A stretch of 64,000 nt of DNA from Okamejei kenojei (taxonomy: Eukaryota): contig CM069163.1 of assembly GCA_035221665.1 (NCBI GenBank), forward strand, positions 7,130,001 to 7,194,000, given 5' to 3'. The notes below the pieces were generated by a model that saw only the letters and a list, made by a program, of their open reading frames with translations, was not told the origin of the DNA and did not search any database. Positions 4,729 through 57,991 of this stretch are shown piece after piece; positions within the stretch are counted from its first letter, which is position 1, and each line of letters opens with the position of its first letter. Both the position numbers and the translations under genes were made by a program.

Positions 4729-5121
4729 CTGATATTTATAAAAATGGAGGGAAGGACAAATAGGAACCACTCAAGAAAATGGGTAAAAAATACAAAATCT
4801 CTTGAGAAATAAACTTTTCAGAACAGCATCGTAAGCTAAATTCTGCATAGTATTAGACACAATTTTCTGAGAGTATTAAAGGAATAATAAAGATGGAAGA
4901 TAGACATATGGAGTGCAATTTTATCAACTTGATAGGAAGGAAAGCCACAGGATTCAGGGACTTCAATGGACATGTTGTATAATAGTGCAGCACTCAATTC
5001 CATTACATTTCCAAAGAGTGGATTGAGTTTAAAAATGCCTAAGTGTCATGGAGAGATGCAGCATGAAAAAAGCCCCTTTGGCTCACAGAGTCCACACTAG
5101 CCATCAATCACCCATTTGTAC

Positions 5122-5215
5122 GTCTGAAGAAGGGTCTCGACCCGAAACGTCGCCTATCTCCTTCGCTCCTTAGATGCTGCTGCACCCGCTGAGTTTCTCC
5201 AGCTTTTTGTGTACC
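5122..5215 (+). mobile_element. 94-bp PLE-derived mini-element with hammerhead-like core and 13-bp TSD
   Basis: gtCTGAAGAagggtctcgacccGAAACGTCgcc...ttttgtgtacc flanked by cacccatttgtac (5109-5121 and 5216-5228). Confidence 0.85.
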
Positions 5216-5287
5216 CACCCATTTGTACTAATCCTGCGTTAATCCTATATTCCTATCAATTCTCTCCAGATTCTATCACTCTATAAC

Positions 5288-5800
5288 ATCATCATCGGCG
5301 GTCACTAGAAACTAGTGACTGTCCTCTCCATAGTGTCGTCTACTTGTGGTTCTACAGATGTCTGTAGAGGCCGATCCGCGATCCACACACCTTGGTGCAA
5401 CGTGGGCAGTGGAGACTGGCGGTGGTCGGTAGTCGTCGAGCCCCCTTCTCTCCCTCTTTACGGTGCTGTCGTTTTGTCTCTGCGACACGGCGTAGTTCCA
5501 TTTTGTGAAGCGCAGCTCCTTCCTGCAAGGATTTCCTCCAGGAGCGCCTGTCCAGTGCAATGTGCTCCCAATTGCTCAATGTGATGTGGAATTTCTTCAG
5601 ACTGTTTTGATGTTGTCCTTGAAGCGTTTCTTTGGCCCGCCAGAGGCTCGCCGACCTTCCTTCAATTGAGAGTGTAGGATTTAGGGAGACATATGTTGGA
5701 CATGCGGGTGACATGGCCAGTCCATCGAAGTTGGTGCTGCATTATTGTGGTGCTGATGCTGGTCATGTTGGCTTCCTCCAAAACGCTGATGTTGGTGCGT
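5288..5800 (-). mobile_element. RTE (BovB-like) LINE 3' fragment
   Basis: Minus-strand peptides SLKKFHITLSNWEHIALDRRSWRKSLQEGA and HCPRCTKVCGSRIGLYRHL (RTE C-terminal Zn finger); (TGA)n tail at 5288-5296. Confidence 0.85.
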
Positions 5801-6134
5801 TTGGTAATTTGGTCATTTACACAGGTCAATTAATATCTCAATTTACAGATCTTTGAGATGTAGGAGTATACACGCATGGTTTCAGGTAGAACTTGCAAAC
5901 TCCACACAGACAGCACCTGATGTGTGCATTTAAGTGAGGTGATTGCTGTGAGGTGGGTCTCTGGCACTGTTGGGCAGCAACTTTACCAGCCGCGCAACTC
6001 TGCTGCACATTGTTACTACTTCATGTACACTCGTGCTGGTCAAAAACATTGGCAGAAAATCAGGAAAAGAATCTGCAAAGCAACTCCCCATCAATATCCC
6101 ATTTGCTGAAATACCAGTCAAAGGTTTCTCAGTT

Positions 6135-6530
6135 ATAGAGTAATACAACGCAGAAACTGCCCATTTGGCCCACCAAGTCCATACCGAGCCTCGTACCCAT
6201 CTATACAAATCCCATTTTCCAGCACTTTGCCCATAGCCTTCTATGCCTTAAGTGTACATATTTCCACTCCCCTTTTAGACAATTGTTCCAGGCTGCAACC
6301 ATCCTCTGCATTGAAAAATCCTCCATCCTGGTAAATCTCCTCTGCATCCTCTCCAGTACAACCTCTGTCGATCTATACTGTGGCTACTAGAACTACACTG
6401 CGGCTACTAGAACTACACTGCAGCTGAGGCCTAAATGATGTTTTATATAATTGTACCATAAGCCCCCAGCTTCTGTATTTTATGTCCCAGCCATTGAAGG
6501 AAAGTATCTTAAATGACTTGTTAAAACTAC
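6135..6530 (-). mobile_element. Decayed CR1 LINE 3' fragment
   Basis: 3' tail (acgcagaaactgcccatttggcccacc) and internal ctggtaaatctcctctgcatcctctcc; 20-bp tandem duplication at about 6382-6421. Confidence 0.65.
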
Positions 6531-7232
6531 CTTTGCATCCAGAATGCCCTCTTACCCCCCTAAGAAAATAGATGGTTGCTTAATTGGCTATTCCAGACTG
6601 AAGTTAAAAGAAATGTGGGGAGATTAAAATGGTATTGATGTAGGTTAGTATAGATTTGTTTTTGATAGTCATACAAGACCTCTTTCCATGCGGAAATAAG
6701 TACATTTTCATAAATGATCCAGGTACAAGAGGTTTAAATTCCTCTTAAAATTGGAATACTCATTTATAATTAGCAATTTTCTAACAGAACCACTTGATGT
6801 CATTTATTAAATATGGAAATAAAGATGCATGCTTTAAATATTTTGTTAAGTATAATTATACTCTAAAGATGCTTTTATGAAATTAGCAGCCAAAATCTCA
6901 TCAAATTGCATTAAAGTATGGTTGATCAGCTCTTCTAAGCCATTTTCACATTTGGTGGTTTCTGCTTTCTGATTTACAGCATCTGCTGCACTATTCGGGA
7001 CCCAGTTCTGGACAGATTGACTCTGATCACAATCTTGAAGGTTTGTGTATTTGCAAATAACATGAGTTTTCAGCAGTGTGTGCACGCATGGAAGTATTGG
7101 CATAAATCTGCAGTGGCATATGTCCATTCAATGAATGTTAATAAAGTTTTGGGCTCAGCAGATCAGGAAGCATCTTCACACCAACATAAGGACAATGTGC
7201 ACAGTAAATCTGCCATGCTTATCTTCAGATTA

Positions 7233-7580
<348 letters not shown>

Positions 7581-8149
7581 CTATGTACAATGCAATTTCA
7601 AATAAGGCTGATAGCCAGAAGTGTATTCCTACTAGTAACATTAACTGTACATTGCATCCTGTCTCAGAAATTCATGGAAATAAATTCCCAAAGCAACACA
7701 CGTGATGCTGGTACTATGCATATACTCTATTATTATTATTGACCAAGGTTAAATTTCAGCTCTTGAGATCTAATCCCTGCAATGGAAAAAGGGTAGGATT
7801 ATTTTGCGATAGCATTAAAAATTCCTGTTTTCCAAGCCTCAAGATCATACTTTAATTTTTCTTAATTTTATGCTCCAAGACTCCCTTTGTTTAAACAGGG
7901 TTGCTAAATTCATAACCTGTTAATTTTTCATGCTAAATTTCCTTTGAGGAATTGCTTAATACAAAATAGACAAGTCCACCTTTTTGCTGCTTCAAATTTT
8001 AGGCAATGATTTCCTGAATCAGAACCAAAAATAATTCTCAATAGCCATTCATAACATAAATCAAAAGTAAAGCCTTCTACGCTGCAGTATCTTTTTACTC
8101 CTATATCATGGTTCATTTTAGCAGAACCTTTGTGTTGTTAATTTATATA

Positions 8150-8602
8150 CAATGGCATCTGCGGGTGCTGCGAGACGGCTGCCCTGCCAGCAGCGTGTTC
8201 ATCAATTCTACTTTTTTTGTCTTTTTAATGTGTCCAAATGTGTGTTTTATGTATCTTGGTGTGTCTAGTGTGGGGGGTGGTGAGGGGGGGTGGTGGGGGG
8301 GGAGGGGGGAAATGCTTTTGGTCGCCTTCTTCACGGAGAGGCTACTTTTTCCATGTCGCCTCCCTCGTGGCCTAACACCGTGGATTGGTGCGGCCTTTCC
8401 TGGAGTCGAACCCGGAGTTTCAGCAGCGGGTGCAGCAATGGAGGAGGACTAACTGTACTTTGTGCCTTCCACCACAGTGAAGAATGCTGTGGTGGATGTT
8501 TGTGTTAATTTTTTATTGTGTATTATGTATTCTTTTTTGATTGTACCGCTGCTGGCAAAATTCATTTAATGAATAACTTGATTGATTGATTGATTGATTG
8601 AT
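8150..8602 (+). mobile_element. GC-rich non-autonomous retroposon with (TTGA)6 tail
   Basis: Shares ctcgtggccta, gcggcctttcctg and gccttccaccacagtg motifs with the minus-strand copy at 35372-36105. Confidence 0.65.
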
Positions 8603-10989
8603 CTGAAAATTCAAGTAAAAAGATGCAAAAAATTAAAAAAAGAAACATCGCAGATGTAACCAATACATTTTTTTCTAATTGATCTGATATCACAGTAATA
8701 CCCTCAAGGCTTTGTCTGTGCGGACTTAAAAAGGACAGAACCAATTTTGTACATTATCACAAAAATACATGACAAGGAACATATACAACATGTGCTGTAG
8801 TCGGAGGTTATAGTAGCTCAAGGACACCAGTGTTTGTCGGGGTACTAAATTTCAAATTCAGTGGTCACGATTCTAATAAAAGTTAGAGAATTCACTCAAA
8901 CAGTAATAATTTCCAGATGCACAGGGTGCTGAAGGCATTTCATTGCCCTGCAGTAAAGGTTAAGGGCAATCTGGCTCCGTGAGCCCCTGCTATCTAATGG
9001 TATAAGCTCCATTCCAACACCTGATTTACAGTAACTGCATTTATCAGCTCTCTCTAATAGCATGTCTGTAAATTCCCTCTAAGCAACATGCAACAGTTTC
9101 ACCCGCATGAGAGAAAGAACAATATATTTTTATAAATAGGGTTATTCCCGAGTATTCTTACACTTAGAATAGAGCAAGGAGAGTTGCTGAACTTCAACGA
9201 GGGCTCAAAATGAGCAACTGTAGGCCAGCCACTTGTCTAATTTCACGTCTAATTCCAACCCTTTCTGAGATTGCTAGGTTTCCGGCATGGACAAATTCTC
9301 CTCACCATTCTTCCAACTAATCAACTGAGAAATCCACATGGATACATATGTTATTTGTCCAGAGTGCGACTTTTAGTTTTTCCTTCATCAGAAAGTTATC
9401 AACAGCTAGAGTTTGGTAACTTGGCCTGAAATGTATGTAAAGCTGCTCCCACTAACATCTCCTCCAGAATTATCATTTTCGCTCACAACGTTTTACCACC
9501 CTCTTTCATCAGGTCATCTCAATTTTACCACAACTCTCTTCGGTTTTGTTATTTATTTTCAGCGACTGCAACATTTTGCTTTTGATTTAGCTTGTTGAGA
9601 TTACCCAGCAAGGAAACAAGCCATTTACCCAAAGGAAGCATTTTAGTGTAGTCCAGCCAGAACTATTTCATGCAAGTTTAGGGTAAGCTAGAGGCTAAAA
9701 ACAGGCTTACAAATACTGCTGATTTATCTGGCTTAACTATCCAATTACCTTCACCATTCTGCAATAGTTCCAATCTAGTCACCAGCCAGTCCATCTTGGA
9801 CCCAGCTATTCCCTTAAAACAATGCATAACCTGCCTTTCTGGTATTACTGGCAAAGGAAGTGTGAAGTATTATACCCCTGCTTACAGTGACAGGCAAGTG
9901 AAACCAGGCTTTGATATATGTGCTCAACATTATATTTGCTTTTGGATAACTTGTCACGGCAAAAAAAGCAAAACTGTGTGTTTAGCTGCTGATATATCCT
10001 ACTTAACATGATATTAGTTAAAAATGTATTATTTTATGAACTGGGCAGCTAAGGATATCAAGAGGTTTGTATACGGCACTAATACTGGATTGTTGATGCC
10101 AGTGGGTCAAAGAGTGCCTAACAAGTCCAATTTTGAGTGGTGAATGAGCAGTTGTGGATCACACAAGTGGGAATGAGTGCAACATTACAAAACAAAAGAG
10201 CCACTGCAAAATAAAGAGCTACACCTACATGTAAATATTAAAGACTACTTTGAATATGACTAGTCAAATATCATAAACGAGCAAATTTATGAATGCAAAA
10301 TGTGATTTGCTATTGGGCATTTTCCCAACATCACTGACGCATGCAACTCCTCTAAACCAGCAATTCATGTGTGATTAATTAGAATATTTCATTTATACTG
10401 TGTGCACTTTAGCTCATTACTCTAAGTAAAATTTGTTAAGTATTTACATTTAGATAATTAAAATCTGGTTACACCCTTAAGAAACATGTATGCTCTTCAG
10501 GCAAAAGCTTTTGTGACTACTTACAGTAAATTACCAATTTAAATTACATCACTGCCTGCCTCAATATAGTCTCATTGATGCCGCATTTTGTACCAGGGGA
10601 GACTGCTGTAAATCAGACAGCACTTGCCCTTTAAGGAGCTAGTTTTCCAACATCATTTCTTCTAACACTCTCTCAGATTTAAAAAGAAATAAATCATCAA
10701 CCAGTGTCACAGAGTTACTTCTGTGCAGAGTGACAGACTCAAAAGACAATGGAGGAAAGAAATTGGGATTGTTAGCGGCCATTTTATGAGTGCCAGGGTG
10801 TCCTAAGAGTTCCAAAACATCACCCTCAATACACACGCCTAATGGTGGGGCAATAGGCACCTGATGCCATTGTTGACAGCATAAATGACTATTCAATGTA
10901 TATACACATTGAAGGCCAATCATGGCATTAACCAGGATTCAATGTTAATCTAACTGCATAGCAGCATTCTGGAGTTCAGCTAACACCCT

Positions 10990-11079
10990 CTCTGAAGAAG
11001 GTCTCGACCCAAAACATCACCAATTCATTCTGTCCAGAGATGCTGCCTGTCCCACTGCGTTACTCCAGCATTTTGTGTT
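10990..11079 (+). mobile_element. PLE-derived mini-element (mutated hammerhead-like core)
   Basis: ctCTGAAGAaggtctcgacccaaaacatcacc...gagatgctgcc...actccagcattttgtg. Confidence 0.75.
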
Positions 11080-11090
11080 AAAATGCGGGT

Positions 11091-12012
11091 TTCCCTTGCC
11101 AACCGGAATTATATTTTCCTGGAGTGCGAGCTTTTTCTGGAGATTCGTTCTGACTGCCAGTAAGTGAATTTTTTTTTTTTTAAATCGCCCGACTATTTCA
11201 GCACTGCAGTAAAATAAAAGTTAGTTCCTAATGCCGTGAACGCCGACAGATTTTACGTAGGGGACAGGTAAGCGAAAGCTGTTTATTTTTTCATATAAAC
11301 TTGCTTGTTTAGATGACCTTAATCAACATTTCATGTTACGAAATGTTGATTTATTCCCCATATGAACCGGCAGTATTTTCCCTGCCGATATTGGGTTTAA
11401 ATTCACCGCAACCGCAACGTTCCAATCCATCGCGTTCGAGAAAATCCCACTCGCAATGGCCATTAATTTACGGGCATTAAACACTATATTCCTTCAATTT
11501 GGCTTATAAATTAATGATAATTAGATTTAAAAATCATGTTATATTGTGAATTCTTGTGTGAATGTTATTTGGACACTTAGGCTTTTAAAAAAATGTTAAT
11601 ATTCTCTTAAGAAATAGATAGATGTTTAGATCTAGTAATTGAATTTTGTAATTAGCTACAATTGGGTAACTAACTAATTAAATGCTTTAATTTCAGGTCA
11701 TCCAAGTAAGATTGTTTCATATTTGTTTCAGAAAGCTTCAATCTATAATAACTGAAAATGTCTTTCAGTTCTCTTAATTTTTAAGAAAGTTATGGGCTTT
11801 TGACTGTCCTCGATCACAACTTTTGTGTTAAGTCAATGGAAAAGCAATAGGGAACAAGATGCTAATTTCCGAGTATGAAAATGGCCATAACCTTTTTAAT
11901 ACTGAAGATAGGAAAGTGAATTAGGTGTCAAATTAAACTTCTTTTTATGCTTTATCTGATGGGATAAATTGCAGACTTGATTTTTTAAATCTCAAAATTT
12001 TATAACATTGCT
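11091..12012. mobile_element. Unclassified interspersed repeat, probably DNA-transposon-derived
   Basis: CpG-rich then AT-rich block distinct from its flanks; bounded by aaatgcgggt (11081-11090) and aaatacgggt (12013-12022). Confidence 0.45.
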
Positions 12013-12239
12013 AAATACGGGTAGGAGATTTAACTCCCTATGAACATTGGCAAATCAGATGCATTTTTACAACAATCATATAAATTTACAGTCATTAAAG
12101 CTAATCATATTTTCATTATGGATTTAAGTACGAATTTAAGCTTTCTAACTGTGTTGGGATTCAACATTTTGTATATCCTAAATATATTTAAAACAATAGT
12201 CTGGGACTTTTCCTACCCTATCAAAGACTTGTAGTTAGT

Positions 12240-12652
12240 TGTTGCTTGATTCCGATCAGTTATTTTCACAATTTGACAGATGCTCTCCACCATTGGAGCA
12301 CTGCAAGCTAAATGTTGAAGGACTTCTTGCCAATCGTAAGGCAATTGTACAAACCAAATGTCCCAAAATGCTTTCCTGCATCCTTCAGGTTCTTGTACGA
12401 ACCTGCACACCCCTAAGTCACCAATTGAACACTCCTTGCACTATCTAGGACTGGTTTTCTCATTATGTTTTGCACAAATGTCTCATTTATTTCAGACGTT
12501 TTTGCACTGTATGGTAGATGTTACATATAATTTATGTAGAATTTGTTTTATGTGTCGCCCAAATCTATGTGCCTGTGTTGCTGTGGCAAGCAAGACTTTC
12601 ATTGTACCTATGCCTCTCCATTCTTGTGCATATGACAATAAACTCAACTTGA
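12240..12652 (+). mobile_element. Decayed Rex1/Babar-type LINE 3' end
   Basis: 3' UTR-like tail tgtggcaagcaagactttcattgtacc...gacaataaactcaacttga. Confidence 0.5.
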
Positions 12653-12668
12653 GGTAAAATAAGAGTAA

Positions 12669-13262: not shown

Positions 13263-13279
13263 TAAGAGTATGTGTCAAC

Positions 13280-13575: not shown

Positions 13576-13814
13576 AGGCTGAGACTGTCTGCACAAATGA
13601 GGATTACTGAGAAAAATATATTTAATTTTCAGTGTGCAAGGCCACCATATGGCACGAGAAGGTGATGTTTAAGCTTCTGGTGAACATACTCCCAGAATGC
13701 TGCCGGAAAAGGAGGCTCAGTGGCAGTCAAATGTGTGACACTAAAAAACATTGCCAGTATCCAATGAACCATCCACAATTAGTCTGTGAATAAAGAGGGA
13801 AAGAAATGAGTGAA

Positions 13815-15029: not shown

Positions 15030-15670
15030 TAACATAGAAAATAGGTGTACTAGGCCATTCAGCCCTTCGAGGTGATTATGGTTAATCATCCTAAATCAGT
15101 ACCCGATTCCTGCTTTCTCCCTAATCCCTTGATTTTGTTTCCCTATCTAACTCTCTTGAAAACATCCAGTGAATTGGTCTCCACTGCCTTCTATTACAGA
15201 GAATTCCACAGATTCACAACTCTCTGGGTGAAAAGTTTTTTCCTCATCTCAGTCCTAAATGGCCTACCCTTTATTCTTAAGCTGTGACCCCTGGTTCTGG
15301 ACCCAACATCAATATGTTATTTTCCTGCATCTAACCTGTCCAATCCCTTAATAATTTTATATGTTTCTATAAGAACCCCTCTCCTCCTAAATTCCAGTGA
15401 ATATAAGCCCAGTTGACGCATTCTTAAATCATATGTTAGTCCCACCATCCCGGGAATTAACCTGGAGAAGCTACACTGCACTCCCACAATAGCAAAAATG
15501 TCCTTCTCAAATTAGGAGACCAAAACTGCACACAATACTCCAGGTGTGGTCTCACCAGGGTCATGTACAACTGCAGTAGGGCCTCTTGCTCCTACACTCA
15601 AATACTCTCGCTATGAAGGCCACTCTGCTTTCTTCACTGCCAGCTGTACCTGCATGCTTACTTTCAGCAA
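15030..15670 (-). mobile_element. CR1 LINE 3' fragment (same subfamily as 1933-2948)
   Basis: Colinear similarity, e.g. agagaattccacagattcacaactctctgggtgaaaag and aaaactgcacacaatactccaggtgtggtctc. Confidence 0.88.
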
Positions 15671-20075: not shown

Positions 20076-20085
20076 ATTTTCCATG

Positions 20086-21726: not shown

Positions 21727-22005
<279 letters not shown>

Positions 22006-22345
22006 TCATGCAAAAAGCGGTAACTTAAGGACACCAACTAGCATCCAACTAAATTATTTTGAAATCAGCAGTGAAGCAAGTGCTCATCGATCTATTACAC
22101 ATCAGCCTCAAAGGACATCAACTGTGGAATCGCAGAATCATAGGAGTAGTGACATGTGTCGGGCCAAGATGTGTGGCTGTGCTTATTTTACACTCAAGAG
22201 GCGTGGAATAAATCTTATATGACAACAGCATTGAACCCAACAAAGATTTAGAAATGCAAACACCACAATTGTGTAGATTCAAGCAACTGCAGTATGACTA
22301 CACTAACCAACTAAATGAAAGTCTGCTGAGGAAGAAAATAACCTA

Positions 22346-22580
22346 AGATAGACATAAAATGCTGGAGTAACTCAGCGGGACAGGCAGCATCCCTGGAAAG
22401 AAGGAATGGGTGACACTTTGTGTCACGACCCTTCTTCAGATTGAGTTACTCCAGCATGTATCGACCAGAAGTATCACGCATTCCTGCTCTCCAGAGAAGC
22501 TGCCTGTCCCACTGAGTTACTCCAGCATTTTGTGTCTATCTTTGGTTTAAACCAGCATCTGCAGTTCCTTCCTACACAAC
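22346..22580. mobile_element. Fold-back PLE-derived element with 11-bp TSD
   Basis: aaaataaccta at 22335-22345 and 22581-22591; inverted arms agatagacataaaatgctggagtaactcag / ctgagttactccagcattttgtgtctatct. Confidence 0.85.
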
Positions 22581-22859
22581 AAAATAACCTACTCAGGGGC
22601 AAGCAAGTTGCAACCATGGCATTAAAATACAAGCTGTAATGAAGTACATGGGAAGAAATCCATCTGTGGTCATTAGCGCTGAATGCATTTGAGAAGTGGG
22701 TGCCTGTTCTACTTACAGTTGGTTACTCAATTGCAATATCTCCACTGGTGGTCAATATTCTCGCATGCTTTGGCACTAACACCAAGGATGAATTTCTCTC
22801 TTATTGTGTTATTTACAGCTACATTCTTCTGTGGTAGTAGTATCTTTTTTAAAGACAAC

Positions 22860-24312: not shown

Positions 24313-24332
24313 ATGACTCATTTAATTAAATA

Positions 24333-24493
24333 GGTGAGGCAGCATCTATGGAGAGAAGGAATAGGCGACGTTTCGGGTCTCAACCCGAAACGTCGCCTAT
24401 TCTTTCTCTCCATAGATGCTGCCTCACCCGTTGAGTTTCTCCAGCATTTTTGTCTACCTTCGATTTTTCCAGCATCTGCAGTTCTTTCTTAAC
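24333..24493. mobile_element. Fold-back PLE-derived element (46-bp arms) with 14-bp TSD
   Basis: catttaattaaata at 24319-24332 and 24494-24507; arms 24333-24378 and 24383-24428 match at 45/46. Confidence 0.9.
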
Positions 24494-24663
24494 CATTTAA
24501 TTAAATATGTGTGCACTTATTTAAATGCGCATGACATCAAATCTCTCTTTATCCCGCTGTGCAAAATATAATGTAGCCATTGTTAATCTACTGTTGAAGA
24601 TCAAATTGCACACCTATTTTAATATGCCTGCACCCTGGCCAAAATAGAAATCCTGAAACATTG

Positions 24664-24861
24664 AGGGTACACAAAAGGCTGGAGAAACTCAGCAGGCGCA
24701 GCAGCATCTAAGGAGCGAAGGAGATAGGCAACGTTTCGGGCCGAAACCGTTCCCAAAACGTTGCCCATCTCCTTCGCTCCTTAAATGCTGCTGCACCCGC
24801 TGAGTTTCTCCAGCCTTTTATGTACCCTCGATTTTCCAGCATCTGCAGTTCCTTCTTTAAC
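24664..24861. mobile_element. Fold-back PLE-derived element (about 77-bp arms) with 15-bp TSD
   Basis: aatcctgaaacattg at 24649-24663 and 24862-24876; arms at about 24663-24740 and 24752-24829. Confidence 0.9.
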
Positions 24862-26076
24862 AATCCTGAAACATTGTTTAACAGTGCACTTGCTTTTCCA
24901 ATGATACCGGGTTTTGCTCATCTCTCAGCATATCCTAATTAACAGTCTTTCAATATGCAGCACACCTGCCCTTTTGGATAAAGGGAATGTGCATTTGCAC
25001 AGAACACTGCATTCAAAGGCCAATAAATAAATTACAGGTCAAAAATATTACAAAGCATTCTCCAAAGAAACTCACTTCCTTCTCCATTCGAAACACATGT
25101 GAAAGACACCTAAATCCCATCAAACTGCATGATTACAAAGGCATTCACGCTGAATAATCTGATTGCAATTCAAGAGATTTTCAACAGCTCATTAACAATC
25201 CATTAATACATGGAAAGCTTTTAATTTATATTTAAAAAAGATTAGAACTGACCAAAGATATATTGTTCCGTGGAACCTGAAACAAACATTTTTTTTGCAT
25301 AGACAATTTAGATTCAATCTCAGCCTTAATGGCATATTACAGCAGAGAAACTAATAAACATGTGAAATTGGATTTTCTTGCCTTCAAAATACTTTTTTGT
25401 GGGTAATTCCAGAGATCAAATTTACACAACAAAACTCCTGTTTTTGTTGGCTATGTTTCAGTTTGGCTAAGCAAGTACTAGAAAAGGAATCTGAGCTTCA
25501 CTGCCAGATGTGCTGAAGGGCCACGCAGTAAATATTTACCCACATTCTTCATTCAGATATTTATTTGAGCTGCCGCACATCTCCAAAACTTCAAGTTCAT
25601 ATCTCTTATCATCAATTATGGCAAAAAGCTTTTTAGCTTTAAAGTTTCATTCCTTCATTCTCCCCCCTCACCTCCCCATCCTTTCCTCTGGCATTCATCC
25701 AAATTTACAGTCATCTGCATATGAGCAATCCGGCAGCATTTCATTTCAGCAGATTCTTAAGAATGCAAGTCACAAAAAGGACCAGATTCTTGGGTGATTT
25801 TTTATGTACAGGACCATGTTCGATCTTATTTGGAGTTAATCGCAGGATAACTTTTCCCTCTCCTCCCTCTTCCATCCATCGCAGCAATTTTTTCTTGGGA
25901 AACCTTCCAGTCTATATTAAACTGCACTTTTGATCTAAAAATCTGTGCTCAGCTACATACTGCAAATTCTTTGCTACATTTTAAATAATTTTTAACGGAC
26001 AGACGATGGATGGATGCTGAGATTACAAATCTACAGATGAAATCATATTCCAAAGTAAAAGGTTCCTTCTACCCTA

Positions 26077-28847: not shown

Positions 28848-29150
28848 GGCAGTGGCACAGCGGTAGAGTTGCTGCCTTACAGCGCCAGAGACCCAGATTC
28901 GATCCTGACTATGGGTGCTGTCTGCACAGAGCTTATACATTTTCCCCCTGACCTGCGTGGGTTTTCTCCGGGATCTCCAGTGACCTCCCACACTCCTACG
29001 ACGTACAGGTTTATAGGCTAATTGGCTTGGTATAATTATAAATTGACCCTCAGGCGTAGGATAGTGTTAGTGTATGGGGATCGTTAATCGGCGCGGACTC
29101 GGTGGGGCAAAGGGCCCATTTCCGCGCTGTATCTCTAAACTAAACTAAAC
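28848..29150 (+). mobile_element. Near full-length tRNA-derived V-SINE (HE1-like)
   Basis: A-box tggcacagcggtagag, B-box-like gattcgatcc, V-domain gggttttctccggg...cctcccacactcc, tail tgtatctc(taaac)3. Confidence 0.9.
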
Positions 29151-34134: not shown

Positions 34135-34455
34135 ATGGAGGTAATTAAATCATGCGGGGCACTGAAAAGGTGAATGGTCAGAGTCTTTTGCCCTGGGTAG
34201 GGGATTCTAAAGCTAGATTTAAGATTAGATTGGAAAGATTTAAAGGAGATCTGAGGAGCAATCTTTGCACAGACAGTGGTGGGTATATAGAAAGAGCTGC
34301 CAGAAGTACTGGGAGAGGTGGGCACAATTACAACATTTAAAAGATATTTGGGAAGTAACATGGATAGAAGCAGCTTAGGAAATTATAGGGAAATGCAGGC
34401 ACATGGGACTAACTAAATCAACATGGTTGACATGCACAAATTGGACAAAAGGGTT
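34135..34455 (+). mobile_element. Decayed CR1 3' fragment
   Basis: gaggtaattaaatcatgcgggg...agatttaaaggagatctgaggagcaa...acaacatttaaaagatatttgg. Confidence 0.8.
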
Positions 34456-34754: not shown

Positions 34755-35358
34755 ATCACTCATCAGCCAGGGCTGTGAGTACAGGAGGTCAGACATCCTG
34801 TTATGGCTGCACAAAACGTTGGGAAGAGCACATTTGACATACTGTACAGTTCTAGCTACCCTGCACTAGGATGGATGTCATTAAACTGGAAAGAATGCAA
34901 AAAAAGATGTACATGGATGTTACCATGTCTGGATGGGTCTGAGCTATCACAGGGGGCTGAATAGACTAGGTCTTTTTTCCCTGGAGCAAATGAGGATGTT
35001 GGGTTAACTGATAAAGCTGTATAAAGGGGCATGGAGATGGTGAATAGCCATAGTCTTTTCCCCAGGATAGGAGTGTTCAAAACTAGAGAGCATAGGTTTA
35101 AGATGAGAAGGGAGAAATTTTAAAAGAACCCAAGGAGAAATTCTTAAACACAAGAATGTTACTTCCCAAATATCTTTTAAATGTTGTAATTGTGCCCACC
35201 TCTCCCACTACCGCTGGCAGCTCTTTCTATATTCCCACCACTGTCTGTGTAAAGATTGCTCCTCAGATCTCCTTTAAATCTTTCCAATCTAGTCTTAAAT
35301 CTAGTTTTAGAATCTCCTACCCAGGGTGGTGCATACATGGAACGAGCTGTCAAAGGTA
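34755..35358 (+). mobile_element. Decayed CR1 fragment carrying an inverted 171-bp insertion
   Basis: gtgagtacaggaggtcagacatcctg...aaactagagagcataggtttaagatgagaaggg...; CR1 resumes at tggtgcatacatggaacgagctg. Confidence 0.75.
35156..35326 (-). repeat. Inverted duplicate of 34191-34361
   Basis: 171 bp, 8 mismatches and no gaps by manual alignment. Confidence 0.92.
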
Positions 35359-41341: not shown

Positions 41342-41646
41342 TTAGTTTAGTTTAGAGTTACAGCATGTAAGCAGGCCCTTTGGCCCACCGGAACTGTGTC
41401 GACCGGCGATCCCCACAAACTAACACTACATTCGCTAGGGGGAATTTACAATTATACCAAGCCAATTTACCTACATGCCTCTACGTCTTTGGAGTGTGAG
41501 AGGAAGCCAAAGATCTTAGAGAAAATCCATGATGGTCATGGGGAGAAAGCACAAACTCCGTACAGACAGCATCCGTAGCCGGGACCAAACCAGGGTCTCC
41601 GGCGCTGCAAACGCTGTAATGCAGCAACTCTACCACCATGCCACCC
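41342..41646 (-). mobile_element. HE1-like V-SINE
   Basis: (tttag)n tail, ctttggagtgtgagaggaagcc V-domain, aaactccgtacagacagca and gcagcaactctacc head. Confidence 0.88.
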
Positions 41647-47844: not shown

Positions 47845-49510
47845 TTTTCTCTCTTTCCTATTTCTAACAAAGGGTCTTAGACTTGAAACTTTAACTCTGT
47901 TTCTCTTTCCACAGATTCTGCCTGCCCTACCAACTATTTCCAGTATTTTATGTTTTATTTTAGATTCCATGCAACTTGTTTTTTTTATATTCATTTACTA
48001 TTTAATTCACTGCCAGGAATGACAATTTATCTTCCAGCAATGACAACTGGAAGTTCTCCTGCATTCTCTGACAAGAGTTTTGCCCTTTTGGTTGTGTAGT
48101 CCATCCTCAGTGGTTTCTCTTGTTCTTCCAGTTTTCACTAAGACGTTGACCAAAACTCACTTCCACGTGCATATTTCTTTCATTAGCAAATGTCTCCAAC
48201 TTACCCCATGTGGATTTTAACTCAAATTCCACCCTTTACTATTTACTCACCCAGGATCACAGGAATCTTCAAACTTGCCATCATTTCTCAAGACATTGCT
48301 CTCATCATATACCAAGATCCACATTTAATCCATGCACTCTCTTGACCTCTGTCAACTACTCTTACTCATCCTGCCTAAAGCTGTTATGGTCCACAATCTC
48401 TTCGTTCAATGCTGTAGCAGACAATTTATTATCTTTCTTTTCTGGTTTAAATAATGTCAAACTTGAACATCTTATAAATTCCAATACCCCTCCAATATCC
48501 CTCCAGACCTTTCAACTTTCCCATCTCTCCCTCCAGTTCCTCTCGCGTGTTTTCCTCTTCCCTTCCAATGGTCCCATTTCTGATCCCCAAACAGCAGTCG
48601 CCAAGAGGCCTCAGCTGCATTCCTCTACAAGCTTACTTCAATTAAGTCTGAGGACTCTTCTTCCGCCACCTCCAAATGCATTTCTTTGACCAGGCGTTTT
48701 CACCCGAGACTGCTGACTCTTGTCTCCAGACTTCCTGATTCACGTGGATCTCTCCCTCTGACTTTGTACCCTCTCTAGATCTACTCCTTGTGAACTGCAG
48801 ATGGGACATTGACCGCCTTGATTTTCCACTCCCCTCACTCACTCTAACCTATTCTCTTTCAATTTATACTGCTCTGCTCACAAAGAACTAGCCCTGATAT
48901 CATTGTAAACCTGCCAACAGGGTACTGTTGTAACCTGGTGAACTGACCTCAAGGTTGCAGAGGCCAAATATCAGTTCACAGACACATTCATATCTCACTC
49001 TCATCATGCCCAACCAATGAACATCAGATCATTGCCTCCAAGAGTTACGAACCTCATTTCTTACATAAATCTTCCCTTCACTGCATCCAGTCTTGTGCTG
49101 CCTCAGCCTCACACAACAGTGTACAAAACACTGGGCACTGATGGCTCCTACTCAAGACCCTACTCTCACCTTGACTCCATCGTGGTCTCCCCTAGTCCAT
49201 GGAACTCGTTCCATATACATCCCCGAACTTTCAGATGCCCTTTGCCACTTTAACAGTTTCCAATTCTTTGGTCCCAAACAGCTAATTGTTACCAAAAACA
49301 TACACTCTCTCTGTACTGCCTCACATCAGAAGAGTCTGAGGGTCCTCCACTTCTTTCTTGAACCAGAGAACCAATCAATTGCCCACCACAAATACACACA
49401 TTCAACTAGGTGAACTTGTCCGCACTTTAAACAATGTCTTCAACCCCATTTACTTTTTTCTTCCCCAGATCCAAAATTTAGTATTTGGAACTCTCAAGGA
49501 CCCAAGCAAC
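47845..49510 (+). mobile_element. Decayed Penelope-like element: terminal-repeat remnant (47845-47975) plus N-terminal/RT region
   Basis: Frameshifted remnants resembling PLE RT motifs: cttcttccgccacctcc (FFRRL), gaactgcagatgggacattgaccgcc (NCRRDI), gatatcattgtaaacctgccaacaggg (IVIKPADKG), SDALCHFNSFQFFGPKQLIVTKNIHSL (TMDVxSL). Confidence 0.7.
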
Positions 49511-50984
49511 AAATCAAATCGGTTAGTGCTGCACGAGAATTAGTTTATACTTCATGCTGAAACTCTAAAAGATATTTGTACATTTTAAAAAAATTGGACA
49601 AAAGATTCATAAAAAAGACAATGGCTTGCTACTATCTATCGGATGAAACAAGTGTGCAGGGATAGAGATCCATACATCAAAAAATTAGATCTATTTGTGC
49701 ACATTTTTTTTGCAGGATTTGTGCTCAAGGCCATTTTGCACACAGTAGAATTTACTACCAATCATTTCCAAGTTAGTTAGCAGCCATCTGAAAATTGACC
49801 TGCATGCTTCCAGGCAAATCACTTTAACATGTCTGACATGTTCCCAGGATAAAGTGGATATCTAATAACATCTTTTAGTGAATAGCAGCTATTTCCATAT
49901 TTACTCAGAAAAAGCAGTTGTTACAGTTCCGATCCGCTTCTCACTCATATCATAAAAAAAGGAGCAAATCCTTTGGAGCAAGTTACGCAAAAGACACAAA
50001 TTAATGGGTTCCCATGGGGAAATCCACATTCTGCCCACAACCTCTGCCAGACATTTGTGCGCTCCATCTATTACCACAGCCAGTGCTGATAAAAATGTAA
50101 ACATCTTTATATTTAAGTGCAACATGTTACAGCACTGGTCCATACTTCAAGTATCTTGGGGAAACATTTGGCACGAGGGCTCTTGAGGCTCCACCATCAC
50201 AACAGGCGTGGCTACATCTGGGCCCTGGCTCTAACCAGAAAAATACAATCTCCTTTATTCTCCTGTGCCAAGCAATGACCACATCTAATACCAAAAGGTA
50301 AATTCCAATTTCTAGCCATCAGCACAAAATGAAATATGCATATTTTAAAGGGCATAAAATTAACAAAAAGCAGGCATCTTGTGTATGTAAAACATTAGGT
50401 TTCTTGCAAAAAGTTGATAACTTCTCCTTTTCCATTTTTATCAGTACATTTTCTTCTGTTCATTTCTGATGACTGACTTGATTACTTGTGAAACTTCTCG
50501 TTCTTCTACAGGTAAAAGCATAATTTCTTTTGCCCCAAGCTGCATCTATTTAGGTCATTCACCCAATTCTTATGAAAGATCCTGCACTGAAATGTTACCT
50601 GTTTCCCTTTCCACAGCTGTTGTGTGGTATGGAAAGTGTTTCTGGTATTTTTAATTTATTTTTATCTGCTCACTATTTATTCATACGGGTAAATTCAAAC
50701 AAATTGCTTGTCAGACAGGTTTTAAAGTGTCACAGTTGTAAAAAAGTCAATAATTTCCTGCCCACCTAATAATACAGGCTTGATAAACCCACATTATTCC
50801 CTGTATTAAATTAGCTGATCTCAATCAGTGACCCAATTGTTCTTGCACTCTGGGTGAAAACAGCCAGACTTCCCGCTCTATGCTGGAAGCGAATATGTTT
50901 GGATACAAGGGGACAAGATCAAACAAAGCGTCAAAGCCCCTGGAGTTGAACAGTTTGTTGAGGCCCACTGGAAATGACATTCAC

Positions 50985-51619
50985 CACTGACCACATCTTC
51001 ACATCTCCTCCTCTTTCTGCTTTCCGCAGAGACCGTTCCCTCCGTAACTCCCTGGTCAATTTGTCTCTTCCCACCCGAACCACCCCCTTCCCTGGTACTT
51101 TGCCTTGCAACCGCAGGAAATGCCACACTTGTTGCTTTACCTCCCCCCTCGACTCTATCCAAGGACCCAAGCAGTCTTTCCAGGTGAGGCAGAGGTTCAC
51201 CTGCACCTCCTCCAACCTCATCTAATGCAGCCGCTGTTCCAGGTGTCAACTTCTCTACATCAGAGAGACCAGGCGCAGGCTTGGCAATCGCTTCGCCCAA
51301 CAACCCCACTCAGTTCGCAATAACCAACCTGACCTCCCGGTGGCTCAGCACTTCAACTCCCCCTTCCATTCCGAATTCGACCTTTCTGTCCTGGGCCCTC
51401 GCCAATGCCAGAGTGAGGCCCAGCGCAAATTGGAGGAACAGCACCTCATATTTCGCTTGGTCTCCCACAAGCCTACTGTCTCCGCCTCTTCCTTTCTTTT
51501 TCTCACCCCCCCCCGACATCAGTCTGATGAAGGGCCTCGACCCAAAACGTCGTCTATTCCTTCTCTCTATAGATTCTGCCTCAACCACTGAGTTTTCCCA
51601 GCATTTTTGTCTACCTTCA
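50985..51619 (+). mobile_element. Penelope-like element 3' end: GIY-YIG endonuclease remnant followed by a terminal repeat with hammerhead-like core
   Basis: HIFTSPPLSAFRRDRSLRNSLV...PGTLPCNRRKCHTC...QRFTCTSSNLI*CSRCSRCQLLYIRETRRRLGNRF...VAQHFNSP...EEQHLIFRL, then agtCTGATGAagggcctcgacccaaaacgtc at about 51520-51551. Confidence 0.9.
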
Positions 51620-51699
51620 AATAATGTGCACTAATGAGGAAGAAAGCTTCAGCGGAAGAAAGGTATCAATGGATGTCACAAGAAAGTGGTGATAGAAGG

Positions 51700-52090
51700 T
51701 AATGTGGATATATACAAGGATGTCGCTGAGATTGGAACATTTATGTTTTAGGGAAAACATTAACTAGCCCGAGTTGCTAGCTTTGAAACAGAGGAGATTG
51801 AAGGGGAATTTAACTGAGGTAAATAAAATCATAAGAGATAGATTTTTATGCAGGAAGTAATTGATTAACATAGCAAAATGGATTGTACGAAGAGGGCATG
51901 AATTTTTAATTAATCAATAGAAAGGGGAAGTTAGGGATCTGGAACAATACCTAATAACGCAGCAGAGGAAGAAATCCTCATCACAGTTAATGTACACAGA
52001 CGATCATCTGAACAACCATAGAAGGCCATGAACTCTTCTTGTGGGTGGCACGGTTGGGATGGGCTGACTGGGTCCAGTTTGTGCTGAAAA
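51700..52090 (+). mobile_element. Old CR1 3' fragment
   Basis: acaaggatgtcgctgagattgg...gaggagattgaaggggaatttaactgaggtaaataaaatc (RRLRGDLIEVYKI-like). Confidence 0.55.
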
Positions 52091-54069
52091 TGTCACAATA
52101 TTCTACAATTTAACATCTTCAGAATATAAACCAATTAGCAGGAAAGTTAACAACTATTTTTCAAATCTTTTGTCATCAGATGTTTCCTCCAAGAACCCAA
52201 ACACAGGAGTTTGCATTTGTTTATATCAGTCAATCAACAGATTAATATTCACATGTGGTTATTTAATGTAATGGGTTGTGCGTAATTACAATAAAAAGTT
52301 AAATGAAAGGGTTTGTCCCACATCCACAGGTAATTAAACGCACATTATCCATGCTGAGATGATCTTGCTATTCTGGATAAGTCAATGCACGAGTCAGGTG
52401 ACTGTTAATTCATTTTGGCCCTTCTCAAAAGGCAGCAAATGCCTATAACATGAAAGAAGAAATATATGATGATTGCATTTGATCTTTCTAATAAAAGGCA
52501 ACAAAGTCTCTTATTTCCACATTGAGTTTTAAGATCCTGCAGTTTCCCCCCATTTTATCCAGGCAGTAACAAAGGAAAATGGCAGTGTGCTCAGCTGGTC
52601 GACTGGACAAAGAAGGCATCCCACTCATCCTTACGAATGGAACAAATGTCATACATTTTCTAAACAATCTACAGGAGAAATATATTTAATGTTCAAGCTG
52701 AAAAATATGAGGTTTTAAAATAAAAGCATTGATATTGCAATGGTTCATTTTGTAAGTGATGAACAAGTGAAAAACCCAATTTAAAGTGTAGGAAGGGGAG
52801 ATTGGTACAAAAAGGTTTGATACTTGCAACTGCAGAGCTGAAAATTCATACACCAAATATGACAATTACAAAGCATGGATATTAATTGCATGACTTTGGA
52901 TGTTTTGTGCAATTTTATTTTGCTGGTAGCCTTTATTATTTAAAATGAACAAGTAAATCACTACCACCAAACAAGTCAATTGATCAAAAATCCTGTTACA
53001 AATTTTGAAATTGTCATTCTTTTTAAATAAAGATATATAAAGTGCAGAAGCCTTAAACAAATAACTTGCTGCAAAAAAAAAAAATCCTGCTCCCCATAAC
53101 ATTAAGATGACTTGATACGGCAAATATTCAAGGAATTCACCCCCACCAAGGGGGCAAAACAGAGGCCAAAAGTTCACTTTACAAATGCTTCACCATTAAC
53201 CCCTTCAACACAAACTGAAGCAGATGTTCTACTCGCAAGAAAACATGTGTGAAAACACAGCAACTTTTGGTGCCTAGAAAGAACTTTTGGTGCCATGAAT
53301 GCACTTAAATGGCATCTTTTTTTTTCATGGCCTACTGCCACAAAATTTTATAATATACAAGTTCTAAGCCATACACAATTAACGTGCTTCACCGCTGTGG
53401 AATGTACAAAGGAAAACAGATTGGTCACTGGTCTGGACAGAGTGTGGAAGAAATCAGAGCAGCGGATTAGACGAGGGTGTTGATTTTTGGGTGATGCAAC
53501 ATTTGGGTGGGATTGAAACTTGGTAGGAGAAATAGAATGTGGTAGTTGAGCGATTCCAAGAAAATCCACCATGAGGAGCAAGTATCTTGTTTAAAAAATC
53601 TATCTCCCGTGTTGGATTCAATGACAGAGCTGGCCACATTTAACGTAAGCTAAAGCAGACCACAATTGTGCTGTATCGGTGATCCACAGCATCTACAGAG
53701 CACGCATGCTAGAAAGTGAGCAGTCCAATGGCATTACTACACATCTGGGTGCACAACGGATTCCAAGGATACAAAAGAAAACAGCATGCTGTAAAGCACA
53801 ATTCAATCTTTTATGCACACAGATATTGCTCCATGTCACTAGCTTGTTAGATCTTGAAGTGGGGAATTCTTAGCCTTGGGAATTCCTAGAGGTAGCAGAC
53901 CACTGAAGCCAGCAGCTGCAAAATAAGGTGTTCATTTTTGTAAAATCAATTTTTTTTTTTTTAAGTCCAATAATGGCAGATAAGACACATGACAAACATA
54001 TATTAGCCTATTTATCAATACATTTCAACAATTCAAATCATCCCATCCAATTTTACAGAATTGCCACTT

Positions 54070-54356
54070 TGGCCCGGCACCTTACAACGGCAGACACCCG
54101 GGTTCAGTCCTGACCAAGGGTGCTGTTTATATGGAGTTTGTACATTCTCCCTGTGACTGCATGAGTTTTCCCCGGGTGCTCAAGTTTCCTCCCACACTCC
54201 AAAGATGTGTAGGTTTGAAGGTTAATTGGCTTGAGTAAAATTGTACATAGTCCCTAGTGTGCAGGGTAGAGCTAGTGGATAGGTTGATCGCTAGACAGTG
54301 TGGACTCGGTGGGCTGAAGAGCCTGTTACATGCTGTATCTTTAAAGTCTAAAGTAA
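54070..54356 (+). mobile_element. HE1-like V-SINE
   Basis: acccgggttcagtcctgacc B-box, gttttccccgggtgctcaagtttcctcccacactccaaag V-domain, tgctgtatctttaaag tail. Confidence 0.85.
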
Positions 54357-55485
54357 ATTAAAACCTCCTGTATGTGTTGAGGTGTTGCAAAAAGTAACTT
54401 TCATTTTGCACGACTGCAAACAGGCTGACTGTTTTGAATAGTTTTTTTTAATTCCTTATTTTGAATCAGAAGATTACAGCAATATCTGTAGCATTCTCTA
54501 TTAAAACACAATCTCAATTCCAAATAAAATGGAACCATGCATTTCTAACTAATTTTCAATGGCTGATAGAAGCAGTATTCCATCTGCATGCAAACAAGTC
54601 GCAGTAAACCTTTGGCTTTGTAAGGACTCAAGCTAGACTGTGTATGCCCATCACAATGAAGAGAATATGTGGAAAGGAGGAAGTGAATTATACAGCAAAT
54701 AGTGCACATATCAAATTCAGATTTTATATCTGATCACATATATAAAACATGTTTTGTACAAATGAAAACAGGCTAAAATAATGTTATATCATTTACAAAA
54801 ATACTAGCTATAGTAATGAAATTAGTTAACCTTTTCCACCACTCGGTAAATATGAAACGGTGAGCATGACAATGAGAGTCACATACCATGTTTTCTTCCA
54901 TAAATCTTTCATAAAAATGGGTGAAGAATTTTGCTATACTGCTTCTATCTTAATTTAGTTACTGATTTGATCATTTTCACCTTTTACATTATAGCAAGTT
55001 AGCAATGGAGTCAACTTTACAGCTAGTCTGAATTGCTTAAATTTCATACAGAACACAAACCACTGAAAGAACCATGAGAGGATTCAGAACAGGGCTAACT
55101 TAATTCATCCTATCTGTAGACCATGCTGACATTTAAATGGCGATTGTGCTCATTTGAGAAAGTGACATTCTGTGTGTGTGCATGTATGGGAGGGTAGAGG
55201 ATGGAAGGTTATAAAACAAAGCAATTAATTTAGCCTGGGGCACAAGGTCTGTTTACCTCCTGCAAGAAGGCGAGAATGGAAAATGGAGAGAGCAGTTCAC
55301 TCTGTGCAGTCATCATCTGAGAAGGTGCCATGATGTGGTAATTTTTTTTTCAATACAGCTGGATTGCCCGAATGGGAGAGGAGAGATCTGAATGATCTGC
55401 ACAAAAGCCAATTTTATTGCTGCCCAATAATGTAGTTTTTTAAAAGTCATTGTTACTATTGCACCAAGCCAGACAATAAGTTGAA

Positions 55486-55585
55486 AAGAAGGTCTGAAGA
55501 AGGGTCTCGGCCCGAAACGTCGCCTATCTCCTTCGCTCCTTAGATGCTGCTGCACCCGCTGAGTTTCTCCAGCTTTTTGTGTACC
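55486..55585 (+). mobile_element. 100-bp PLE-derived mini-element with hammerhead-like core and 17-bp TSD
   Basis: ccagacaataagttgaa at 55469-55485 and 55586-55602; 93/94 identical to 5122-5215. Confidence 0.9.
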
Positions 55586-57991
55586 CCAGACAATAAGTTG
55601 AATTTAGTTGGAAATGGTAGGTTCATGACTCTCACATTAACACGGAAATCCCATTTACTGGTCCAGCCTCTCTGTTCATTTTGAAGCTGTGGTCCAATGG
55701 TTGGTTTACTACCCACATAAATCAGCGGCAGAGCAAAGTTTTCTGTGACTCTATGTTTATGTCGAGGAATCTGCTTCTGAACCATGTGGAACTTTCGATC
55801 AGACACAGGATCCTTGAACCCATTCACTTGCACAGGTGTGTGGGCAAAGTAAAGGAAGAATGAGTTTAGGCTACATTTCTTTATTTACTATGTTTATTAT
55901 TATTGTCATTTAAATGTCCTTCAAAATATGTTTTAAATGTGTGTAGTTGTAAATAAGTAAATGCATGTAACTATGTATTTATTTTCCAATTTAAACAGAG
56001 AAAGCTTGGCACCCCTGACAACTGGCAAAAGCTGGACCATGCTTCGCAGATGGTTAAAGGTTTCCAGGGGTGTTTTGTGATATAACTTGCTCTGACTTGT
56101 CCATATCACTCCATTACATCATACTACACTTAGGGCATTTCCAGGCAGCTCAGGGACCATCTGGACAACGAGATTGTCTTCCACACTCAGCAAAAGGGAA
56201 TGGAGACGCAGTTGGCGAGTGCAGGTGGTAGGTCCGACTCAGAAAAATCCAGGCTATTGAGAAGGCTGGGATGAATTCTGCATCTTTTGTTTAATAAATT
56301 AAAGTAACTCACAACATTTACCTTTTTATCCTTGTATATTGTTCTCTACACGTGATTTTATATTATTGCTAATAGCATTGGAGGATAATATACTTTGTAC
56401 TTGATTGTAAAGAATACATGCATGACAACACATACGCAATAGAACCTGCTCCTTTAAAGCAAATGTGTCACTGCTAACCTTTTAGTTTGTACAGAAAAAT
56501 ATTGGGATCTCAAGAGAGGCAGAGCATTATTACCTTAGCAAGCTATTTCTTTTTCACATTATCCAATTCAATCAATAATCAAGCAGTAGGTTTTAAAAAT
56601 AAATAAATACAGCTCATTTCAATTCAAAGAACAAAAGATTCACTCACAACAAGCAATGCCTATACTAAAGCACACATTTCCCTTCAAGAGAAACTGATTT
56701 TTCACTCACTCTGAACATCCTTGGCCTCTCTCTGTATTAGCCTAAAGGCAGTCTGTAAATTACACTCTCTTTAAATTACAGTAATTTGCCTGTTTCTGTT
56801 GAATTCGCTCCTTCAGACATATACAAAACCCATTTCCGCAGATCAAATTCACCTTCATAGATGTCAAGAGCAATCGATGGTCAGTGATTTGAAATACTTT
56901 TGCACATCAAATAATGGAAATAAGGAGCTTTATAAATGCAGTTTTTTCTTCACCTACTCAATGTTACATAAAATATGGCAAAGGGCAGATTAGGTTGGAA
57001 TAATTAGTTAATTACAAAAGCACTGAAACCAAACTCTTCTCGTTAACAGCAATTTTGAAAATCCCTGCCATTCATCACAGCAGACGTTACTTTTCTTGAC
57101 AGATTTTTAAAAAATGCTCCTAATGCAGGCCAAAATAGATAGGGAAACTGGAACAGATCATTTTCAATATTTCTCTACAGTGCTGAGTTTTCTCATTGGT
57201 TTTGATTCTCAACACAAAGTCATTAAGTCAAAATCTTAGAAAATAAAATATCAAACAAAACGGTTTTAATAAACCGAGTAGAACCAGAATGTAACCAAGG
57301 TACATTAAACAAGGCAATAGGATGGTCACTATGGTAACTGTGGGCAGTAATCTGCCAATAACACATGGGCAATGGAGCACCAACTCTTAAATGCAAACGG
57401 TTTCATCTATTCATCAAATTAAATACTGAATTTGTTTAGATTGAGTTTAGGCAGGCAAACAACTATTAATCCTGTCAAAAGAAGATTACTTTTAAATGAG
57501 TTTTTCCTGTCCATAAAATTAACACATAAGTCAGGGACATCAAAATACACCATTGAAGGAGTTACTGTATCCACATTAAAAAGTTACAAGAGGTGAACCA
57601 CCATATATATCCATCCCATCCAAAATGTGTTTATACCGCAAGTTATTTTGATTGCTTTCAAACTTTTTTAGACACAAAATACATTTCATAAACTGTCACA
57701 TACTGTATAAACAAAACAGACTCCTTCATTCTGCCAACATCGCTGCATGTTGCCACACAAAATTGAATTGATGTTTATGTGCTAACTCCAATATCCAGCA
57801 AACAAATGCACTTTGCTACATACAGCTGCCCGAACAAGTGTCTTGCAGAGTTTCAGAGCTAAAGCATGTAAACCTGGTGCCGCTAGAAGTGCTATTAACT
57901 CTTGTCCCACCCAAACTCTCCAGCAGAAATGCCATCACTGCTAAGTACTGCTCATCCTAGTAATGCTATCAGTAATGGCACACTCGCTCAG

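Follow-up and report, generated by a model that had tools for sequence, protein, structure and literature searches.

Short hammerhead-bearing insertions in Okamejei kenojei as probable end stubs of a Neptune-like Penelope-like element

Results

Two young insertions carrying a minimal hammerhead motif

A window of 64,000 nucleotides from Okamejei kenojei (contig CM069163.1 of assembly GCA_035221665.1, positions 7,130,001 to 7,194,000) contains two insertions of 94 nt, copy 1 (5122–5215) and copy 2 (55492–55585), each consisting of little more than a predicted minimal hammerhead ribozyme and a short 3′ part. An initial annotation of the window had described them as near-identical insertions, each with its own perfect target-site duplication (TSD), and both points held. 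The copies agree at 93 of 94 positions, the sole mismatch being an A/G difference at element position 19 (5140/55510), and the TSDs of 13 and 17 bp are perfect, with rough probabilities by chance of 3e-5 and 1e-7 when offsets of ±12 are allowed. Copy 1 begins 30 nt upstream of the predicted cut and ends at what is referred to below as the short reverse transcription (RT) start site. Copy 2 is a stub of the same kind with six additional nucleotides at its 5′ junction, which probably arose by slippage, as a repeat of AAGAAGG at the start of the element; its A11.4>G variant is also present in a long copy that bears an open reading frame (ORF; L186).

The motif shows the sequence features of the minimal hammerheads of Penelope-like elements (PLEs), as the annotation had proposed: the core CUGANGA/GAAA/UH, an extra nucleotide after A9, a G10.1–C11.1 pair and a palindromic 15.2–16.2 (PMC4209133; here and below, the literature is cited from excerpts of the papers). 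The A-to-G change keeps stem II paired, as a U·G pair. A stem I of 2–4 bp had also been proposed; the 2-bp form is that of the parent element described below, and the 4-bp form arises only through the extra bases of copy 2. An Rfam search returned no hammerhead match at E≤5 and no match over either copy, only miRNA-like matches on fold-back insertions. In the predicted fold with the 3′ tail (see below) present, the tail's end pairs with the 5′ strand of the core, UGAAGAAGG, and encloses a domain whose limits, about U4 and the end of the tail, match both stub boundaries; the signal is weak, with a z-score of only −1.6. For a dimer, the modelled hammerhead fold is predicted to be far less stable (−6.7 kcal/mol) than the best fold (−19.7 kcal/mol).

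The core is kept in 172 of the 192 young copies that span the region. When the majority bases of the young subfamily were compared with those of an older one, no position differed from the upstream CAG to C17 (0/32) and 11 of 64 differed downstream (p=0.014), which indicates that source elements keep the hammerhead segment. Among young copies the core carries 18 changes in 1916 bases and the 3′ part 50 in 8443, a comparison biased by selection on the 3′ part. Better conservation of the core than of its flanks, whose lack the annotation had named as grounds for rejection, is seen between subfamilies and not within the young copies. Individual copies decay: G12, which lies in a CpG, is A in 23 of 112 older copies. 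Changes in the stems were one-sided only (U2.1 with G/A, U10.4 with A/G), with no recurrent two-sided change. The C and A of the CAG just upstream of the hammerhead are 97–99% conserved in young and older copies, though unpaired in the hammerhead.

The insertions match both ends of an intact element

Copies were counted by exact patterns in the 2.76-Gb genome, in which an exact 42-mer of the element has 35,645 matches. The parent was reached by walking upstream through long copies to full-length elements. One of these, L320, is flanked by a 14-bp TSD and contains an open 1185-aa ORF between two modules, each identical to window 5122–5215 at 94 of 94 positions; in L320 and in a second element, L319, the end module is present at both ends, 3,954 bp apart, as partial-tandem pseudo-long terminal repeats (pLTRs) with the hammerhead motif. 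The L320 ORF matches the Pfam families RVT_1 (E 4.5e-6) and GIY-YIG (E 0.004), both below the curated cut-offs, and two short ORF pieces gave no recognised domain in Pfam. A single ORF with a reverse transcriptase plus, at the C terminus, a GIY-YIG endonuclease (EN) is what is expected of the parent of an EN-containing (EN+) PLE family. In the present element the main ORF begins past the tail, roughly 135 nt downstream of the cut site.

A CX2-5CxxC zinc-finger linker between the reverse transcriptase and the EN marks the Neptune group and is found in Nematis too (PMC8557442). The linker before the EN in L320 is CX4CX2C, and by this feature, common to both groups, the parent is classed as a Neptune-like PLE. 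Since the 94-mer matches both ends of intact L320 at every position, it is, as judged from sequence, the end module (hammerhead motif and RT start site) of a young, intact, autonomous PLE. That the 94-mers are PLE stubs and not a separate family is very probable.

Copy ends cluster just upstream of the hammerhead

The first 100 listed 42-mer places yielded 99 distinct copies, all on one contig. Their 5′ ends were counted upstream from the predicted cut, with C17 as position 1; the 42-mer begins at the cut, so that starts downstream of it are invisible in this sample. None started at positions below 10, 8 at 10–20, 57 at 21–35, 8 at 36–100, 11 at 101–500 and 15 beyond 500, which corresponds to about 5.6% of copies per nucleotide within the cluster, against 0.42% at 36–100 and 0.13% at 101–500. 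Copy ends are therefore non-random, the initial annotation having named random ends as grounds for rejection. The 34 copies that extend beyond 35 nt run into the parent's upstream sequence, that is, its 3′ untranslated region (3′UTR) and in some cases the ORF. The cluster comprises 29 solo copies with a short 3′ end and 9 with a tail, together with 12 short and 7 tailed copies that have an inverted partner; 16 of the 57 start inside the catalytic core and have lost C3 or more. Genome-wide, the number of exact copies falls from 27,664 that extend 26 nt upstream to 11,609 that extend 46 nt; with about 1% divergence per base, roughly half of the copies are estimated to stop between these points.

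The region beyond the tail has 486 matching places, of which the first ~70 gave a second sample of 68 distinct copies. Of these copies, 19 start at 23–34 and one at the cut, and a further 27 have their start downstream of the cut. Five of the 15 copies that run at least 400 nt toward the ORF start in the cluster, as does L176.

Two kinds of 3′ end occur, a short one and one extended by a tail of about 35 nt (29/99), which correspond to the two RT start sites known for PLEs. The tail is an optional trait of PLEs, as is the inverted partner, flagged in 27 of the 99 copies. TSDs of at least 9 bp flank 55 of the 99 copies (median 13 bp). Short and long copies grade into each other in length, and the five commonest haplotypes are common to both. 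Many copies among L189–L258, from the second sample, end 40–180 nt past the tail, and further RT start points may exist there.

Fold-back and tandem insertions

Inverted pairs combine the two kinds of 3′ end. In 25 of the 31 pairs in the fetched loci, exactly one arm has the tail and the other is short; the remaining six comprise one pair with a decayed tail, one that is not a true pair, three chosen for reading past the tail and one with two tails. At two polymorphic sites, both arms carry the same base in 28 and 30 of the 31 pairs, where independent draws would agree in about 59% and 69%. This points to a single RNA or a single source locus for both arms, with gene conversion as a possible alternative. 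Many inverted junctions use CAG/CTG or the stem II palindrome; both polarities of the common CAG/CTG junction are found.

Direct tandem neighbours are rare (2 of 99 copies, forming one dimer). At L323:360-650 (C1 near 85.813 Mb), three ~90-nt units lie head to tail within one 12-bp TSD. All three start at G5, lack C3–U4 and end at the short site, and both inner joints contain a few extra purines. The third unit is distinct from the others at the +53 site, which suggests restarts on more than one RNA. Units that all start at one base are expected if RT runs off the template end and restarts, and the trimer shows the pattern of such run-off and restart, not that of a ribozyme-made circle.

Two fold-backs 55 kb apart, L321 (C1 834,629) and L322 (C1 890,055), have different TSDs and one odd junction in common, found in just two copies genome-wide; they may reflect re-copying within the region, or one aberrant template may have given rise to both. 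Amplification of a fold-back unit as a family was rejected, given these two copies and the two polarities of the CAG/CTG junction. In another case (L093 and L282) one fold-back insertion with nearly equal flanks is present at two distant places on C1 and is probably carried inside another repeat; similar pairs of matches, at 36-nt spacing, recur among the first-listed genome matches.

Origin of the stubs

Taken as a whole, the insertions are probably best explained as stubs of the 3,954-bp Neptune-like PLE, formed as dead-end by-products of its own copying. Over half of the sampled copies start just upstream of the hammerhead, likely because the element RNA begins there, and we lean towards reading the 5′ cluster as the transcript start. 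A YCAGTCT sequence that fits the initiator consensus lies at the 5′ edge of the hammerhead; the distance from its A to the cut downstream is 31 nt. Promoters within pLTRs have been reported for PLEs (PMC2377424, PMC6765202). Transcription would begin within the upstream pLTR, where the hammerhead has its 5′ edge. In Poseidon PAc of the anole, RT starts at two internal sites that bound the tail, both target strands are cut and extended, and the hammerhead cuts only with protein, its cleavage being unnecessary for insertion in vitro (PMC11167929). By analogy, the protein would nick the target and RT would be initiated internally on the RNA, either at the short site or, ~35 nt further on, at the tail site. 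Priming at the start sites of the 5′ pLTR would let the enzyme run off the RNA 5′ end after ~90–130 nt and leave a stub, priming at the 3′ pLTR would give ordinary 5′-truncated copies, and priming of both target strands, one at each site, would give a fold-back pair. Run-off at the transcript start is supported by the fact that ORF-bearing copies, tailed and short copies, and solo and inverted copies are all represented among those that start in the cluster. A more elaborate version, which we put forward only tentatively, is that a dimeric ribonucleoprotein (RNP) primes the two target strands at the short and tail sites of the same or sister RNAs, with a transcript that starts at the hammerhead's 5′ edge and complementary DNAs (cDNAs) that run off and join.

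Several observations limit or weigh against the explanation as a whole. The 5′ cluster is 15 nt wide and not confined to a single base. Contigs of the public runs X11, X12 and X14 cover the element, with a depth ~1000-fold higher over the end module than over the ORF interior; being probably DNA, they give no view of RNA starts, and their loose ends mark older-subfamily divergence. Among 100 listed matches for each start, a G stands before the −26 start in 47 and before the −28 start in 16, as a cap-derived G might; in 60 inspected loci, the preceding base tended to repeat the first base (G-G, C-C) or lay in the TSD, and the excess, equally explained by microhomology or first-base repeat, was not used as support. 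Of 165 short copies, 8 have a UUCG-loop haplotype that none of 115 long copies shows, though a carrier with EN sequence upstream (L078) points to a sister parent. Some 3–4 members of the 57-copy cluster have EN sequence ahead of them, and there are two duplicate pairs; all of these were retained in the counts. The 99 copies are the first matches on a single contig, selected by a 42-mer that hides starts downstream of the cut, and 27 of the 68 copies in the second sample start there. Finally, the weakly predicted pairing of the tail with UGAAGAAGG, or a bound protein, could stop RT.

That last point leads to the closest competitor, in which the same PLE stubs arise from a longer RNA and the cluster marks an RT stop or resolution point, set by a folded pLTR, a bound protein or annealing of cDNA ends at the near-palindrome CAG-N-CTG. 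The correspondence of the predicted fold domain to both stub boundaries and the frequent inverted junctions at CAG/CTG or stem II speak for it, as does the need of the PAc hammerhead for protein in order to fold (PMC11167929). A hairpin should stall the enzyme on its 3′ side, however, yet most ends lie 5′ of stem II; tail-primed copies would open the closing stem first, yet they cluster like copies from the short site; and the z-score of the fold is low. We regard an RT stop as rather unlikely, without dismissing it. Use of the CAG as a 3′ splice site, with a spliced RNA or a lariat intermediate as the template, is very improbable. The strong conservation of its C and A, the pyrimidine-rich sequence upstream and a precedent at the Helix I edge in Drosophila virilis Penelope (PMC4209133) would fit, but short copies have no common exon upstream beyond inverted arms and duplicates, the branch-point-like motif is just a few nucleotides from the AG, and no donor–acceptor junction was found in ~1 Mb of fetched loci, which led to rejection of a spliced, ORF-less template.

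The initial annotation had viewed the insertions as a young, discrete, non-autonomous family resembling short interspersed elements (SINEs) or retrozymes, in which transcripts of solo copies would be processed by the hammerhead and mobilised in trans by PLE RT/EN. Their youth and, as likely, PLE RT/EN as the mobiliser were upheld. A separate family is very improbable and largely refuted, even with tens of thousands of copies, clustered ends, an unchanged hammerhead segment between subfamilies and the reported derivation of vertebrate retrozymes from pLTRs (bioRxiv 10.64898/2026.07.22.740005) in its favour. The 94-mer is identical to the end module of intact L320, and a SINE lineage would have diagnostic changes absent from its autonomous partner, whereas here short and long copies have their commonest haplotypes in common; nor is there an RNA polymerase III head (tRNA, 5S, 7SL), all 94 nt being PLE sequence with no Rfam match. 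Retrozymes are tandem complete-hammerhead units joined at the cut, whereas tandem neighbours here are rare, the trimer joins the RT site to G5 in units without C3–U4, no copy of the 99 starts at the cut and the full core is missing from 16 of the 57 clustered copies. The same findings tell against ribozyme-driven ends: hammerhead cleavage, itself predicted from the motif, appears to set neither insertion end. Core retention in young copies is no better than that of the 3′ part, subject to the bias noted above. The odd junction of L321 and L322 would allow rare re-copying of a short unit, but its form is confined to those two copies.

Other members of the family and neighbouring features

The wider family is not rare in the window, where 16 matching pieces were found, some of them the two arms of one fold-back insertion. 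The older-subfamily copy near 51.5 kb contains a GIY-YIG fragment (50983–51474) with 76% amino-acid identity to the young ORF, and no TSD was found around it. The annotation had tied the family to a PLE terminus through a CTGATGA motif said to follow the GIY-YIG ORF directly at this place; the motif does follow the fragment, but the copy belongs to the older subfamily and, at only 82% identity, was ruled out as the parent of the 94-mers.

Table 1. Insertions of the PLE family and their parts in the 64-kb window
Feature	Position	Strand	Basis or remark
Copy 1, left TSD, 13 bp	5109–5121	.	Sequence
Copy 1 (pLTR stub)	5122–5215	+	94/94 to both ends of intact PLE L320
Predicted minimal type I hammerhead motif, copy 1	5122–5153	+	Sequence; features as in PMC4209133
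CTGAAGA core	5124–5130	+	Copy 1 sequence
Extra A after core	5131	+	Copy 1 sequence
Stem II GGGT/ACCC (4 bp)	5132–5135 / 5140–5143	+	CTCG loop between
GAAA	5144–5147	+	Copy 1 sequence
Palindromic ACGT	5147–5150	+	Copy 1 sequence
C17	5151	+	Copy 1 sequence
Copy 1, right TSD	5216–5228	.	First C also in parent; end ambiguous by 1 nt
Older fold-back insertion	22335–22591	.	One tail arm; 11-bp TSD
Older fold-back insertion	24319–24507	.	One tail arm; 14-bp TSD
Fold-back insertion	24649–24876	.	~92% to copy 1; short arm −, tail arm +; one 15-bp TSD
5′-truncated older-subfamily copy	50983–51615	+	GIY-YIG fragment, shortened 3′UTR, hammerhead motif at 51522 with N7=U
Copy 2, left TSD, 17 bp	55469–55485	.	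Sequence
Six extra nt at copy 2 5′ junction	55486–55491	+	Sequence
Copy 2	55492–55585	+	Stub like copy 1, with A11.4>G stem II variant
Copy 2, right TSD	55586–55602	.	Sequence

A degraded stretch on the forward strand (48546–49362), some 1.6 kb before the EN fragment that starts at 50983, is 29–43% identical at the amino-acid level to the young PLE ORF in its N-terminal and RT part. The window also contains a 171-nt inverted repeat (34191–34361 and 35156–35326; 95% complementary, 794 nt spacing) and two related fragments (2005–2853 and 15151–15667) whose pieces are 81–95% identical and whose translation we take to resemble the RT end of a CR1/L2-type long interspersed element. A second dispersed short repeat family has at least three copies (28877–29148, 41342–41610 and 54157–54323) and is presumably akin to a vertebrate SINE body. 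On the reverse strand, an open reading frame at 7230–7580 contains an apparent exon of what we assume to be a PBX-type homeobox gene.

Discussion

The stub works like, and is, the truncated end of a canonical EN+ PLE. Truncated insertions of such elements (PMC8557442, PMC3846280) resemble those described here in the combination of a reverse transcriptase with a C-terminal GIY-YIG, the hammerhead-bearing pLTR, the tail at one end, the adjacent inverted truncated copy, the TSDs and the solo pLTRs. The difference lies in the distribution, more than half of the sampled copies here being cut to ~90–130 nt with tightly clustered 5′ ends. In the excerpts of the PLE literature consulted, no quantified description of 5′ clustering or of strict short–tail pairing was found; supplements (e.g. 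PMC11167929 Fig. S2) may hold one. Poseidon PAc of Anolis carolinensis (PMC11167929) likewise has two adjacent internal RT start sites flanking the tail and a hammerhead just upstream, and for it, as for the present family, there is no sign of cleaved RNA as the substrate. It differs in that its ORF starts at stem II, whereas the ORF here starts well downstream of the cut; the linker here is of the Neptune/Nematis type, and the present family is known from its sequence.

The minimal hammerheads of metazoan PLEs (PMC4209133) have the same extra nucleotide between 9 and 10.1, the G10.1–C11.1 pair and the palindromic 15.2–16.2, and no stem III. Stem I is 2 bp here, as in D. virilis, and not 4–5 bp as in others, and stem II is 4 bp. 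According to Cervera and de la Pena (PMC4209133), most minimal hammerhead motifs occur singly, probably in truncated PLEs. Non-LTR retrozymes (PMC7229834; bioRxiv 10.64898/2026.07.22.740005) are similarly non-coding, with a type I hammerhead and kinship to PLE pLTRs; they consist of tandem units, all with a complete hammerhead, and are expressed as circles of ~170–400 nt, whereas the copies here are dispersed, rarely tandem and often incomplete in the core.

As a class the stubs are ordinary: earlier work describes truncated ends of PLEs that have minimal hammerheads, tails and inverted partners. The value of the present family is that of a large, young and clean data set, with tens of thousands of near-identical copies and intact parents, which bears on how PLEs start, end and resolve reverse transcription and on the role of the hammerhead. 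The rule of one short and one tailed arm, together with the 5′ cluster, makes specific predictions for the published in vitro PLE system. If the dimeric RNP model is true, a single mechanism would account for the tail, the inverted pLTR and the ~90-nt stubs, and the hammerhead would act as a structural switch paired with the tail and not as a cutter that defines the insertion ends.

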